Made by a program: the position numbers and the translations under genes. The notes beneath the pieces were generated by a model that saw only the letters and a program-made list of their open reading frames with translations, was not told where the DNA came from and ran no database searches. Source: an uncultured Acidobacteriota bacterium (GTDB lineage: Bacteria; Acidobacteriota; Thermoanaerobaculia; UBA5066). Taken from it: a DNA stretch of 64,000 nt. The stretch is taken from contig CAVZYA010000001.1 of assembly GCA_963779415.1 (NCBI GenBank), positions 1,248,001 through 1,312,000 on the forward strand, in the 5' to 3' direction. Shown one piece after another: positions 54,061-59,059 of the stretch. Within the stretch, counting starts at the first letter, position 1. Each line of letters opens with the position of its first letter.

Positions 54061-54644
54061 ATCCGCTTGATCGTGCAGCCGAACGCCTTCGTCTCGGCGA
54101 CGGGCACCGGCTTGCCAACGAGGAAGGCGTCGAGGGCGTTCCGGAAATCGGGCGACCGGACGCTCTTCGCGTCGTCCTCGTTCTCGTCGATCCGTCCGTG
54201 ATAGATCAGCTTTCCCGAGCCGTCGAGGAGGAAGACCTCGGGGGTCTTCTGCGCCCCGTACGCGTCGGCCACCTTGTTCCCCTCGTCCTTCACGACGAAG
54301 AAGCCGAAGCCGTGCTTCCTCGCGTGCTCGGCGGTCTCGGCGGCCGGCTCCGTCTTGTTCGAGTTGATCCCGACGAAGGCGACCCCCTTCGCCATGTACT
54401 CCTTCGCGAGCGCGGCCATCCGCTCGTTGTAGGCGTTCGAGACGGGGCACTTCGTGGCGATGAAGAGGACGGCGACTCCCTTGTTCTTCGAGAGCAGCTC
54501 CTTGAGCGAAACGGGCTTTCCGTCGCGCGCCGCGGGGAGCGTGAAGTCGGGCGCGGTCGTGCCGATGGCGAGATTGGCGGCCGGGGCGGCGGCGGCCGCG
54601 AGAATCGCCCCGAAGGTCAGCGCGGCGATGCGGGCGAGGTTCAT
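54057..54644 (-). CDS. Thioredoxin/AhpC-TSA family protein, exported
   Basis: APDFTLP, CPVS, GINSN, TPEVF, YHGRID and GCTIK. Confidence 0.85.
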
Positions 54645-56866
54645 CGGGATCCCCCCATGAGTCGTTCGAAGGCGTTCTCCCAGATCGCGCGAAGCTCCGC
54701 CGCCGGGCGGTCGATGACGACGGCGCCGTTCACCGCGAGGCGCAGCGCGCCCGACGTCACGCGGCCGAGCAGCGAAGTCGGAACCCGGAGGCGGCGCGCC
54801 GCGGAGAGGACGGTCATCTCGCGCCCCGGCTCGAACGAGACGAGCGCGCGCGGGAAGGACTGGGAGAAGAGGGCCCGCGTCGCGGAGAGCGGCGTGAGAA
54901 GAGCGAGGTCGGCGCCGCGCGTCGCCTGGCCGAAGCAGGCCTCGGCCGCAGCCACCGCGAGCCCCCCCTCCCCGAGGTCGTGCGCGGAGGCGAGGATGGC
55001 GTCCTCGGCCAGCTCGGAGAGGAGCGTGACGAGGGCTTTCACCGCCGCGAGGTCGAGCGTCGGGCAGGGGCCCTCGTCCCGGCCGAGAACGGTCGCGAGG
55101 TACTCGCTCGCCCCCAGCTCGTCGCGCGTCTCGCCGAGGAGCGCCACGACGTCCCCTTCCCGGACGAAGCACGACGGGATCGCCCGTGCCACGTCCGGGA
55201 CGAGGCCGACCATCCCGACCGTCGGCGTCGGGAGGATGGAGCGTCCGTCTGTCTCGTTGTAGAGCGAGACGTTCCCCGAGACGACGGGCGTCTCCAGCGC
55301 GCGGCACGCCCCGGCGATTCCGCGGATCCCGGCGGCGAACTGTCCGAGAATCTCCGGCCGCTCGGGGTTGCCGTAGTTCAGGCAATCGGTCACCGCGAGC
55401 GGCCGCGCTCCCGCGCACGCCACGTTCAGGGCCGACTCCGCGACGGCGAACGCCGCCCCGCGCTTCGGGTCGGCCGTGCAGTAGCGAGGGTTCACGTCCG
55501 CCGCGATGGCGAGCCCCTTCGTCGTTCCGGGGACCCGGATCACCGCCGCGTCGCCTCCGGGTCCCTTCACCGTGTTCGTCCGGACGGTGTGGTCGTACTG
55601 CGTCCAGATCCAGCGCTTGCTCGAGAGGTTCGGGGAGGAGAGGAGACGGACCAGCGCCTCCCCGTCATCCGGCCCCCCCGGGATCGGGACGGAGACCGGT
55701 TCCTCGGGCGATCCGGCCGGCATCGAGACCGGGCGGCGGTAGACGGGGGCGTCGTGGACGAGGGGGGCGATCTCGAGGTCGGTCACGAGCTTCCCCTCGA
55801 AGAGGAGCTGCATCCGTGGCTCGCGGATCACCTCCCCCATCACGACCGCGTCGACGCCCCAGCGTCGGAAGACGCGCGCCACCTCTTCCTCGCGCCCCTT
55901 CCGCGCCACGATCACCATCCGCTCCTGCGATTCGGAGAGCATCAGCTCGTACGGCGTCATCCCCGTCTCGCGCCTCGGAACCTTCGAGAGGTCGAGCCGC
56001 ATCCCGACGCCGCCGCGCGAGCACATCTCGAACGTGGACGACGTCAGCCCGGCGGCCCCCATGTCCTGGATCGCGACGACGGCGTCTCCCTCCAGCACCT
56101 CGAGGACCGCCTCGAGGAGGAGCTTCTCCACGAACGGGTCCCCCACCTGCACCGTCGGGCGCCGCTGGGACTTCTGGTCGTCGAAGACGTCGGACGCCAT
56201 CGAGGCGCCGTGGATACCGTCCCGCCCCGTCTTCGAGCCGACGTAGAGAACCGGGTTCCCCGGCCCCGACGCCTTCGCGCGGAAGATCCGGTCGTGCCGG
56301 ACGACGCCGACCGCCATCGCGTTGACGAGGATGTTCTTGTTGTACGCGGGGTGGAAGAACGTCATCCCCCCGACCGTCGGGACGCCGATGCAGTTCCCGT
56401 AGCCGCCGATCCCGCGGACGACCCCGTCGACGAGGTCGTGCATCCGCGGGGCCGCGGGGTCGCCGAAGAAGAGCGGGTCGAGGATGGCGATGGGGCGTGC
56501 CCCCATCGTGAAGACGTCCCGGAGGATCCCCCCCACTCCCGTCGCCGCCCCCTGGTACGGCTCGATGAACGAAGGGTGGTTGTGCGACTCCATCTTGAAG
56601 ACGACCGCCCACCCGTCCCCGATGTCCACGGCGCCCGCGTTCTCCCCCGGCCCCTGCAGGACCCGCGGCCCCGTCGTCGGGAACTCCTTCAGGTAGACCC
56701 GCGACGACTTGTAGGAGCAGTGCTCGCTCCAGAGGGCCGAGTAGATCCCCAGCTCGGTGATGTTCGGGACCCGCCCGAGGATCGCCTTGATCCGCTCGAA
56801 CTCGTCGGCCGAGATCCCGTGCTCGGCCGCCAGGGCGGGCGTCACCGCCGCCGCAACGTTCGTCAT
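54641..56866 (-). CDS. purL: FGAM synthase subunit PurL
   Basis: [31 protein letters not shown] and SGNVSLYN. Confidence 0.97.
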
Positions 56867-56909
56867 CAGGGTCGTAGTTTAGAGGAAGGGGCAGCCGGTG
56901 AATCCGGCG

Positions 56910-57179
56910 TCACGCGACTTCGTGGCGCACGTGCAGCCTTCCCGCCTCGCGAAGCTGGAGAAGGATGGAGGAGGGGCTCAGCTCGAAGCCGTTCGGCCAG
57001 CAGAGGGCGCCAAGCTCGAGAAAACACCGACGGAAGAGCTCCGGATCTCGCAGGGGGCGGACCATGACCGTGTCGCGGGCCACCAGCGGCCCGACGTCGT
57101 AGTCACCCGTGGAGCCGTCCGAGAACTCCAGCCGGACGACAAACCCTTCGAGCGGCACGGCGCGGACGATCCTAATCAT
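56910..57179 (-). CDS. DUF2442 family protein (putative antitoxin)
   Basis: IVRAVPLEGF.VRLEFSDG...PLRDPELF...LCWPNG.ELSP. Confidence 0.82.
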   Translation of the reverse strand: MIRIVRAVPLEGFVVRLEFSDGSTGDYDVGPLVARDTVMVRPLRDPELFRRCFLELGALCWPNGFELSPSSILLQLREAGRLHVRHEVA

Positions 57180-57330
57180 TGTCGGCTCCCGGGATTCGCT
57201 CCAACGGCTGCAAAGCCCGTCCCTTCTCCCAGTTTCTCATGAGCGCGGCCCTGTTTTCGAGACACCACTCGCGAGCCAGCCGGGCCGCGCGCTCCGGAAA
57301 CCGGCCATCGATGATCTCTCTTCCGTAAAC
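57172..57330 (-). pseudogene. DUF4160 family (putative toxin) C-terminal remnant
   Basis: EIIDGRFPERAARLAREW...ALMRNWE overlaps the DUF2442 start. The N-terminal H.PPH.H motif is missing. Confidence 0.7.
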
Positions 57331-57388
57331 CGCTTCCCCTTCATCGAGCTCTCCTTCCCTAAGTCTATGGAGAACGCCAAACCGGATC

Positions 57389-57485
57389 CGGCTACTTCTC
57401 GGGGAGCAGGTCATTGAAACATCAAGGGAAACTTCAAAAACATCGGCAGTTTGGTCGCGCCCGCACGGCGCGCGTGGATTGAAAC
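57389..57485 (+). CRISPR. Orphan type I-C-like mini-array: diverged repeat, 33-nt spacer, intact repeat
   Basis: 57454-57485 GTCGCGCCCGCACGGCGCGCGTGGATTGAAAC; 57389-57420 CGGCTACTTCTCGGGGAGCAGGTCATTGAAAC; spacer 57421-57453. No cas genes in the window. Confidence 0.72.
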
Positions 57486-57486
57486 T

Positions 57487-57551
57487 GTAGGGGACGGCCG
57501 TTTCAGCGCGGATGGCGCAGGCGGCCACGCTGGAGGGCAGCTCGTCCCCTA
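57487..57551. repeat. GTAG-type REP-like imperfect long hairpin
   Basis: GTAGGGGACG-gccgtTTCAGCGcGG...CCaCGCTGGAg-ggcagct-CGTCCCCTA. Confidence 0.6.
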
Positions 57552-57624
57552 GGGATGCTCTTTTCGGAGGAGGAAAAGCGCCTCCTGGACGCTATGCTTC
57601 TGGCGGTACCGAGATAGGAGTGCG

Positions 57625-57900
57625 ATGGCCAGCAGGCTGAAGGACTAGGTCATCACGTCTCACGCTACTCTCCAGATGCGGCGTCGCGGCATCAGCGAGG
57701 GGATCGTCAGGAGAATCCTGAGCGCGCCGGAGCACCGTGAGTCCGTGGGGCCGGGTCGCGATGTCGTTCAGGCCAGAGCAGTGTTCGAGGGTAAGACCTA
57801 TCTCGTTCGAGTTTTCGTGGATGTGGATCGCCATCCCCCCGAGGTCGTGACGGTCTATCGGACCGGCAGGATCGAGAAGTACCGGAGGAACAAGCCGTGA
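57625..57900 (+). pseudogene. DUF4258 family (putative RelE/BrnT-like toxin) with an in-frame TAG at codon 8
   Basis: AGGAG SD then ATG at 57625: MASRLKD*VITSHATLQMRRRGI...VVTVYRT. TAG at 57646-57648. Confidence 0.72.
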
Positions 57901-58097
57901 AAGTCACCTACGATTCAAAGACGGACACCCTGACGGTCGTCCTGAAGGAGCGTGCCAGGGTGGCGGAGAGCGACGAGGACAAACCCGGGGTCATCCTGGA
58001 CTATGACGATCGCGGAAATCTCGTGTCGCTGGAAGTGCTCGACGCATCAAAACGCGTTACGGAAGCAAGGAAAATCGAGTTCCAGACGACGGCATGA
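57897..58097 (+). CDS. DUF2283 family protein (putative antitoxin)
   Basis: MKVTYD..TDTL...GVILDYD..GNLVSLEVLDAS. Confidence 0.88.
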   Translation: MKVTYDSKTDTLTVVLKERARVAESDEDKPGVILDYDDRGNLVSLEVLDASKRVTEARKIEFQTTA

Positions 58098-58258
58098 AAC
58101 ACTTCTCGAAGAAGGTTCGAAGATCGAAGAGCCGAGCCCTGAAGCCGCCAGCTCCACCGCCGAAAGGTCGGACGCCCGGAAGCGCCCGCGGAAGGCTGAT
58201 CGTCCGGCCCAACTTCGACGATCCACTACCGAAGTCCATCCGCAAGAATTTCGAATAG
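58094..58258 (+). CDS. 54-aa small ORF resembling the DUF2281/Phd-VapB antitoxin C-terminus
   Basis: ATGA overlap with DUF2283. MKHFSKKVRRSKSRALKPPAPPPKGRTPGSARGRLIVRPNFDDPLPKSIRKNFE. Below the ORF-track cutoff. Confidence 0.6.
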   Translation: MKHFSKKVRRSKSRALKPPAPPPKGRTPGSARGRLIVRPNFDDPLPKSIRKNFE

Positions 58259-58294
58259 CCCTCGTCCCTGAAGTTCGGCCCTGCGAGTCGCGCG

Positions 58295-59059
58295 CTACGA
58301 CATCGAGCGAGTTTGGTAGCCGGCCAAGGCCCGAAGCTCGAATCCCGCTTCCGTGAGGGCCCTCCGGACCGCCTTCGCGTTGGCCGCGGCGCCGGGAGTG
58401 TCGCCGTGGAGGCAGATGGTCTCGACGCGGACGGGGATCCGCGTGCCGTCCAGGGCGACGGCGATGCCGTCCTTCGCGAGGGAGAGTGCTTTTGCCGCCG
58501 CCTGTTCCGGCGTCTCGACGAGGGCCCCTTTCATCCCGCGCGCGACGAGGGTGCCGTCCGCGTTGTAGCCGCGGTCGGCGAAGCCTTCCGCTGCGGCGCG
58601 CATCCCGAGCGCGTTCGCAGTCAGGAGGAGAACCGATCCCGGAGAGGAGACGAGAATCAGCGCGGGAGAGACGCGGCGCGCGGCTTGGGCGAGCGCACGG
58701 GCGGTGGCGGCATCGTGCGCCGCCGCATGGTAGAGGCCGCCGTGAGGCTTCACTCCGGCGACGGTAACGCCTTCCTCCCCGGCGACCCGGACGAGCGCCT
58801 CGACCTGCTCCCGGACGAGCCGCTCGATTTCCCTGGCGGGAAGCGCCATCCGTTTCCGGCCGAAGCCCTCCCGGTCGGGATACGACGGGTGGGCGAAGAC
58901 CGCCACGCCGTGAGCCTTCGCGAGGCGGACCGTGGCGCGCATCGTCTTCTCGTCACCCGCGTGGGCCCCGCAGGCGACGTTCACCGTCGTCACGTGCGGC
59001 ATCAGGGCCGCGTCGTCGCACCCCTCGCCGCCGTCGAAGTTCAGATCGATCGCCTTCAT
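58295..59059 (-). CDS. pxpA: 5-oxoprolinase subunit A (LamB/YcsF)
   Basis: IDLN.D.GEG, NVACGAHAGD, HPSYPDREGFGR, KPHG.LY, FADRGY and CLHGDTP. Confidence 0.93.
   Translation of the reverse strand: MKAIDLNFDGGEGCDDAALMPHVTTVNVACGAHAGDEKTMRATVRLAKAHGVAVFAHPSYPDREGFGRKRMALPAREIERLVREQVEALVRVAGEEGVTVAGVKPHGGLYHAAAHDAATARALAQAARRVSPALILVSSPGSVLLLTANALGMRAAAEGFADRGYNADGTLVARGMKGALVETPEQAAAKALSLAKDGIAVALDGTRIPVRVETICLHGDTPGAAANAKAVRRALTEAGFELRALAGYQTRSMS

Follow-up and report, generated by a model that had tools for sequence, protein, structure and literature searches.

The window analysed here is a stretch of 64,000 nucleotides (nt) from the genome of an uncultured Acidobacteriota bacterium (contig CAVZYA010000001.1, positions 1,248,001 to 1,312,000; the genome is called G000 below). 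Within it, the core genes purL and pxpA enclose a variable islet of 1,437 nt (56882-58318, delimited by BLAST against the loci of relatives), and this islet contains a very short piece of a CRISPR array. The piece consists of one full-length repeat of the type I-C family, one spacer, and the last few nucleotides of a second repeat, which abut the end of an insertion sequence (IS). In our view this piece is very likely the defunct end of a type I-C array, truncated by the IS and left in a genome without matching cas genes, and so a relic rather than a guide. An earlier note on the same DNA, made from the sequence alone, had preferred a guide RNA and named the relic of a deleted array as its fallback, and it is the fallback that our analysis supports. 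The parts of the stump and its immediate surroundings are as follows.

57309-57413, minus strand: scrap of an IS3-family element, about 105 nt, comprising the left terminal inverted repeat (TGACCTGCTCCCC...) and the first orfA codons
57414-57420, plus strand: last 7 nt of a second type I-C repeat, cut by the IS (8 nt if A57413 is counted)
57421-57453, plus strand: single spacer of 33 nt, 13/33 G+C (39% GC), by direct reading
57454-57485, plus strand: full-length type I-C repeat of 32 nt, a mutated variant, by direct reading
57486-57563, plus strand: unassigned stretch of 78 nt, array trailer or junk, without a further repeat

One repeat, one spacer and the end of a second repeat

The 32-nt repeat and the AT-rich 33-nt spacer, both described in the earlier note, are read directly at their positions, the spacer lying in a genome of 68.3-68.7% GC. 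Exactly one spacer length 5' of the repeat stands ATTGAAAC (57413-57420). Its first base, A57413, is at once the final base of the IS and part of ATTGAAAC, so that the residue of the second repeat not shared with the IS is TTGAAAC only. The 4.36-Mb genome contains ATTGAAAC just 12 times, both strands counted, and a chance occurrence of this 8-mer at one of 8 plausible spacer lengths has P ~1e-5 (~6e-5 for the 7-mer). Since the string is rare and lies at the exact spacer distance, a second repeat formerly stood 5' of the spacer, and the earlier observation that the repeat terminus is kept at this place holds. Measured against a regular array, with at least two repeats and unique spacers, the feature thus amounts to one full repeat and the last 7-8 nt of another, at a spacing of 33 nt.

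The repeat is a single copy in its own genome, even with up to 3 mismatches allowed. A local-alignment scan of the islet for further repeats returned a next best score of 12 against a null of 11.1 +/- 1.1, with none above shuffles, and a search for more decayed repeats in the islets of G000 and of the genus relative G006, together with 7 other loci, found none above chance. The 78 nt that follow the repeat include one terminator-like hairpin (57543-57557; shuffle mean 0.4). Across 57150-57750, 0 sigma-70-like promoters were found.

The upstream arm is the end of an insertion sequence

Upstream of the spacer, the earlier note had seen a strongly diverged repeat with its own stem. We rejected this candidate, as the sequence is the left end of an IS3-family element, after which no more than the final 7-8 nt of a repeat remain. 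A DNA search within the genus showed that 57309-57413 is 94% identical to G000:C3:571-676, on another contig of the same genome, and 92% identical to G003:C2:74764-74869 in a relative. In a three-way alignment (A1), the likeness begins sharply at TGACCTGCTCCCC in all copies, which corresponds to 57413 on the minus strand, and the sequences outside TGACCTGCTCCCC are unrelated among the three; the likeness stops ~105 nt inward, at 57309-57318. The proposed upstream stem lies inside the IS terminal repeat and, at -4.9 kcal/mol (z 0.04), is no better than shuffles.

The C3 copy carries an orfA gene (MKGKRFTEEQ..., HTH_Tnp_1 with 91.7 bits) and then the start of orfB (HTH_21 with 44.8 bits); the catalytic rve domain is unseen because contig C3 starts inside the element. 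With a TG-type terminus (TGACC...) in three copies, orfA and the beginning of orfB, the element of C3 and the window is, judged from its sequence, of IS3-family layout. The window differs from complete members of the family in that it keeps only ~105 nt of the left end. The right end and any target duplication are lost, and the original insertion site therefore cannot be reconstructed. The IS is multicopy: contig C3 itself starts within an IS3-family copy (G000:C3:1-676), and the IS probably caused the assembly break at this point. The copy in G003 (L038, G003:C2:73800-77200) is itself truncated after orfA.

On its inner side, the IS scrap runs into the remnant of a DUF4160 gene. At the very point where they meet, the IS orfA and this remnant share a 9-nt string, CGATGATCT (57309-57317), which suggests, from the sequence, a deletion between the two that was joined at microhomology. 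As a read check we used contigs of 4 public DNA runs (Logan, low depth), which may include the source sample. Pieces of these contigs match the window without a difference across 56929-57079, 57169-57319 and 57447-57635, and the contigs that carry an intact IS leave the window sequence at 57318. No longer alternative array was seen in the pieces from the 4 runs.

The repeat belongs to the type I-C family

The repeat bears the marks of type I-C repeats as they occur beside I-C cas genes, namely a GTCGC start, a G+C hairpin, a GGATTGAAAC end and a length of 32-33 nt. Cas7c (Csd2) scored above its cut-off in 3 of 60 relatives (G012, G058 and G042; 2 of 59 without G042) and in 0 of the 7 genus relatives. 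Cas5d and Cas8c are likewise above their cut-offs on the same contigs of G012 and G058, where arrays lie directly 3' of cas5d/cas8c/cas7 in the same orientation as the cas genes. The repeats of these arrays are 32-33 nt long, differ from the window repeat at few positions and end in GG(A/G)TTGAAAC. Near-identical repeats beside I-C cas genes identify the window repeat as a member of the I-C family that is transcribed from left to right, on the plus strand, and the type assigned in the earlier note is thereby confirmed. Among Rfam families, CRISPR-DR9 matched the repeat below threshold (23.2 bits, gathering score 45), and no other Rfam match was found across 56850-58350.

The exact 32-mer has 0 copies in genome_contigs (185,579 species genomes) and in metagenome_contigs (241 million records), scans that may omit records of the window's own genome, and 0 of the 60 relatives hold the repeat at 3 mismatches or fewer. 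A pattern that leaves the loop free matched 4 loci in genome_contigs (L058-L061), all from Acidobacteriota by their record titles. At each of them the match is a lone variant repeat in an otherwise regular I-C array, and it carries the same G-to-C change as the window repeat. In L058 the array ends with this variant, in L061 only decayed repeats follow it, and in L059 and L060 it is internal. The window repeat therefore has its likeness in lone mutated I-C repeats that stand at or next to the trailer end in 2 of 4 arrays; the difference is that the remaining array and the cas operon of the window stump are gone. In addition, the window repeat is one C short compared with the consensus repeats of L058-L061. 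The G-to-C change together with the missing C fits a drifted trailer-side repeat, and the 32-nt repeat is probably the trailer-end repeat of the lost array.

The G-to-C change falls in the 3' arm of the hairpin and, in the 4 Acidobacteriota arrays, looks like a recurrent single-repeat mutation. Single pattern matches occur in G070 and G035. A match in G163 was set aside as chance; it sits at the coding start of a gene 3' of an open reading frame (ORF) that is aminotransferase-like, and this gene presumably resembles hisB.

No cas genes and no other arrays in the genome

The assembly of G000 comprises 3 contigs and is an estimated 92% complete. Whole-genome profile searches yielded 0 matches to Cas1, Cas5d, Cas7c (Csd2) and Cas8c (Csd1), and cas3_core found a helicase match only (26.7 bits against a cut-off of 102). 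The built-in controls of the Cas5d and Cas8c models gave no signal; in the same runs, these models scored above cut-off in G012 and G058 and were blank for G000 and G006. A tblastn search of G000 with 14 ORFs of the I-C locus of G012, which included cas3, cas5d, cas7, cas4, cas1 and cas2 (the cas8c ORF was left out by a GC3 filter), returned no cas fragments at E <= 0.01. The lack of cas genes, which the earlier note had reported for the 64 kb, hence extends to the whole assembly.

A k-mer scan of G000 for regularly spaced repeats found no other arrays, only coding tandem repeats. Two of these, at G000:C1:274730-275350 and G000:C1:1906034-1906480, lie outside the window and have periods of 69 nt and 90 nt. 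As all the tandem-repeat periods are multiples of 3, they are probably coding repeats and not CRISPRs.

The locus in relatives

The islet is absent from 5 of the 7 genus relatives (G002, G003, G004, G005 and G007), in which purL and pxpA lie 19 to ~60 nt apart; in G003, the positions that correspond to window 56881 and 58319 are separated by 19 nt. At the same locus, G006 has ~900 nt between the two genes, and this interval holds a copy of the repeat with 25/32 identity in the same orientation, with decay at the 5' end and at 2 of the final 7 bases. Chance matches of 25/32 did not occur in 8.7 million positions of G000, where the best was 24, found once. Neither the spacer nor a similar flank is kept in G006, and Cas5d, Cas7c and Cas8c were not found in that genome. 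The G006 repeat is followed by a Phd gene (43.3 bits) and a PIN gene (29.4 bits). The latter, a PIN (VapC) ORF (L009, 2623-3441), is PIN-like only to ~96 residues and continues (272 aa) into pxpA antisense. It may be frameshifted, so that the toxin-antitoxin (TA) pair of G006 may also be decaying.

In a purL tree (1,582 columns, 10 rows, midpoint root), the genus is arranged as (G002,G004),(G000,(G006,(G003,G007))), with supports of 90/96 and 81/86. G005, whose purL is split over two contigs, and G001, which has no purL match, were left out. This distribution of the relics may reflect one gain followed by clean loss or, alternatively, exchange through recombination in the flanks.

We also considered the I-C locus of G012 as the intact form of the window locus and rejected it, as purL, pxpA and homologues of the islet genes were not found nearby. 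In genus g4, the purL-pxpA interval is short in G019, G024, G030 and G026. Two other genomes carry large cargo islands there. The interval of G022 (L045, C97:28600-36000) spans 7 kb with an SNF2/SWIM helicase, Uma2 and a Phd-PIN pair, and that of G028 (L044, C37:6600-24600) spans 17.7 kb with the methylase and ResIII of a type III restriction-modification system, SNF2/SWIM, Uma2, HicB and DUF5131. These islands mark the purL-pxpA interval as a hotspot for defence and TA cargo. In most of the family genomes seen, the interval (window 56867-58294) is empty, at 19 to ~100 nt.

A proposed history of the stump

We postulate that an IS3-family element would have inserted into the next-to-last (upstream) repeat of a type I-C array. 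A deletion reaching from inside the IS to inside the DUF4160 gene, joined at the 9-nt microhomology, would then have taken the larger part of the IS, the remaining array and anything past it, as well as the 5' part of the DUF4160 toxin-like gene. To the right of the stump, separate truncations would have cut a large DUF1156-like gene down to its last 17 codons and a Phd/VapB antitoxin to its C-terminal half. The array may have decayed in place, or the stump may have arrived already broken through recombination at the hotspot.

The available part of PMC5965381 describes Cas5d as recognising the base of the repeat hairpin and a 3' overhang, and as leaving an 11-nt 5' tag. Because the upstream arm is an IS terminus, the spacer has no repeat hairpin on its 5' side and just 7-8 of the 11 bases of the handle, from which we infer that even a borrowed I-C effector could not cut out the 5' end of the spacer. 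With no Cas5d, Cas7c or Cas8c and no processing site 5' of the spacer, no CRISPR RNA would be made or used, and the stump is best read as inert DNA.

Several observations weigh against an inert relic with this history. The sequences flanking the repeats of G000 and G006 align at chance level (50 against 39.4 +/- 7.5, maximum 65), and no complete I-C locus was found at this site in any relative, a relative with a full array and cas genes at the locus being one of the signs of a plain deletion relic that the earlier note had named. G000 and G006 are not sisters, so a single origin needs later clean loss or recombination in the flanks. No listed run contig bridges 57385-57446, which leaves the junction of the IS and ATTGAAAC without independent read support. 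The hairpin of the surviving repeat persists (6-7 bp, -11.6 kcal/mol), at a stability no better than shuffles (z -0.21). Finally, given an assembly that is 92% complete in 3 contigs, an unassembled replicon may carry I-C cas genes.

Alternative readings

The stump could instead be kept for a reason: its hairpin repeat and AT-rich spacer might have been co-opted as a transcript boundary or 5' element of the flanking TA-like genes, it might stand by as a decoy or guide for I-C effectors that mobile elements bring in or an unassembled replicon encodes, or old CRISPR repeats might be recombination points for the swapping of defence/TA cassettes. The last of these ideas, a speculative one, takes its start from two species, not sisters of each other, that both have repeat relics in the purL-pxpA hotspot. 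Even taken jointly, we consider these options very unlikely.

A guide of the CreA, CreR or crlRNA type, loaded into a I-C Cascade encoded elsewhere and repressing a target such as a neighbouring toxin gene, was the reading favoured in the earlier note. It draws on the single spacer that has repeat-derived sequence at both ends, with ATTGAAAC preserved on the handle side, on the TA-like genes on both sides, and on the TA-linked regulatory mini-arrays with degenerate repeats that are known in type I loci (Shmakov et al. 2023, PMC10120712, in the part available). The stump shares with these mini-arrays (CreA of CreTA, CreR, crlRNAs) a single spacer between repeat-derived sequences and TA genes nearby. 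According to the same part of that source, the known examples lie in or beside cas loci, depend on Cascade, and have two repeat-like arms and a spacer partly complementary to a promoter. The stump fails on cas adjacency, on the two arms and on a match next to a protospacer-adjacent motif in a promoter: the assembly holds no Cas5d, Cas7c, Cas8c or cas fragments, and the upstream arm is an IS3 terminus that offers 7-8 of 11 handle bases and no hairpin for Cas5d (as far as PMC5965381 was available).

The search for a target of the spacer, in phages, plasmids or the host itself, gave chance-level matches or nothing. Against 50,697 phage records and 72,556 plasmid records there was no match better than E 0.3, and IMG/VR yielded no exact match and none with every sixth base left free. 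In its own genome, the spacer is matched at best at 22/33, at 4 sites. The single site that combines a TTC motif with the seed (C2:295184) matches at 14/33 overall, and no TTC-adjacent partial target in the genome goes beyond chance; seed-only pairing, which is very short, may be compatible with the sequence. Nor is there the conserved position and spacer expected of a regulatory array, since 5 of 7 relatives have no islet and G006 has a repeat but no similar spacer. With no effector, an IS in place of the upstream arm, no TTC-adjacent target and an unconserved spacer, we regard a guide as extremely improbable.

A solitary-repeat decoy on a mobile islet, which would soak up I-C Cas5d or Cascade in the manner of an RNA anti-CRISPR (Racr), is in our view just as improbable. 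The stump does present a lone full-length hairpin repeat in a horizontally variable islet with IS debris, and the available part of PMC10651486 (Camara-Wilpert et al. 2023) describes Racrs as solitary repeat units in viral genomes, so that the stand-alone full-length repeat hairpin is a feature common to both. The placement and matching system type of a Racr are lacking, however: the stump is not on a phage or plasmid, the islet has no phage or plasmid genes, and with no I-C Cas7c in the host and in 7 of 7 genus relatives there is no cognate system to inhibit. The absence of sigma-70-like promoters noted above and the absence of the exact repeat from the rest of genome_contigs and metagenome_contigs speak against a decoy as well, and the adjoining ATTGAAAC and spacer show former membership of an array, not a stand-alone unit.

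An 'empty' array, in which the 33 AT-rich bases, immediately 5' of the repeat as transcription runs, would be a leader end, as AT-rich as many leaders, and ATTGAAAC a chance occurrence, is equally improbable in view of the exact spacer distance (P ~1e-5), of the leader ends of G012 and G058, which share ...TTGATCG..GCG before the first repeat and are unlike these 33 nt, and of repeat mutations of the kind seen in trailer-side repeats.

Relation to known systems

Of the kinds already known, orphan CRISPR remnants come nearest, and the stump of the lost I-C array is a further instance of them, not a new kind. As described in the available parts of PMC5294841 (Zhang & Ye 2017) and PMC7145637 (Bernheim et al. 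2019), orphan arrays and remnants of cas-less genomes have in common with the stump a true repeat and spacer without cas genes, target or partner array. The stump differs from them in being below array-finder size, with one full repeat, in having an end defined by an IS, and in lying among truncated defence and TA genes.

The locus offers a worked example of CRISPR erosion, in which an IS in a repeat and a microhomology-joined deletion would leave the trailer end surviving in a defence/TA hotspot. It also holds a caution for the search for mini-arrays and RNA anti-CRISPRs, as an IS terminal inverted repeat that abuts a cut repeat mimics a 'degenerate repeat with its own stem'. A search of the genome for paralogous copies is advisable before such a candidate is read as a guide RNA. 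The stump itself opens no new biological question.

Contents of the islet

Apart from the stump and the IS scrap, the islet and its two core flanks contain the following genes and gene remnants.

54641-56866, minus strand: purL, left core flank; NCBIfam PurL equivalog NF002290 at 988.8 bits (cut-off 648)
56910-57179, minus strand: DUF2442 gene (DhiA-like antitoxin partner), apparently intact, 89 aa; Pfam 35.7 bits against 23.9
57172-57318, minus strand: 3' half of a DUF4160 (DhiT-like) gene, first ~35 codons missing
57564-57617, plus strand: last 17 codons and stop of a large gene (SEEEKRLLDAMLLAVPR, then stop), remainder deleted
57676-57900, plus strand: DUF4258-like small gene, putative toxin partner; Pfam E 0.0069, 17.1 bits, under the cut-off of 25
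57897-58097, plus strand: DUF2283 gene; Pfam 57.3 bits against a cut-off of 23
58139-58258, plus strand: C-terminal remnant of a Phd/VapB-type antitoxin, inside the ORF 58094-58258
58295-59059, minus strand: pxpA, right core flank; Pfam LamB_YcsF 272 bits, NCBIfam PxpA subfamily 267.4 against 226

The purL gene shares 84-89% DNA identity with its counterparts in the genus relatives. To the left of the stump, the DUF4160 remnant covers only positions 35-65 of the 65-position Pfam profile, and its BLASTP alignment to the intact 88-aa homologue of G013 is confined to residues 36-88 (58% identity, E 1e-22). The DUF2442 gene equals its G013 homologue in length and resembles the DhiA family of NCBIfam weakly (18 bits, cut-off 200). 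The two genes hence do not make up a DhiT/DhiA-like pair of full-length members, and neither the DhiT nor the DhiA model of NCBIfam scores anywhere near its cut-off. To the right, the DUF4258-like gene has no NCBIfam match, and DUF2283 cassettes homologous to the one in the islet occur elsewhere in the phylum at 67-77% DNA identity. The earlier note had placed the array between two divergent TA operons. Genes of this sort do lie on both sides, but the DUF4160 member of the left pair is truncated, and the right pair consists of a DUF4258-like gene below its cut-off and a DUF2283 gene.

The Phd/VapB remnant shares 22 of 39 residues (56%, E 1e-14) with the C-terminal end of the Phd antitoxin that G006 carries at this locus. 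It has no N-terminal Phd domain, VapC partner or Pfam match, and its NCBIfam VapB match is weak (20.2 bits against 60). With a truncated DUF4160 gene, an IS scrap, a DUF1156-like tail and half a Phd/VapB antitoxin, the islet is a patchwork of remnants, and its 1.44 kb thus form, within a variable hotspot, a scrap-heap of defence and TA genes.

The 3' end of the large gene finds matches of 84-91% DNA identity in 5 genomes of other families. Its homologue in G301 is at least 390 aa long and has the same ending; it matches DUF1156 (anti-phage) weakly, with 28.7 bits where the cut-off is 1000, and DUF2283 genes come after it. The ~45 nt at 57570-57615, which encode a terminus ending in EEKRLLDAMLLAVPR and the stop, keep this identity of 84-91% across families of the phylum, which is unusually high for the end of a gene.

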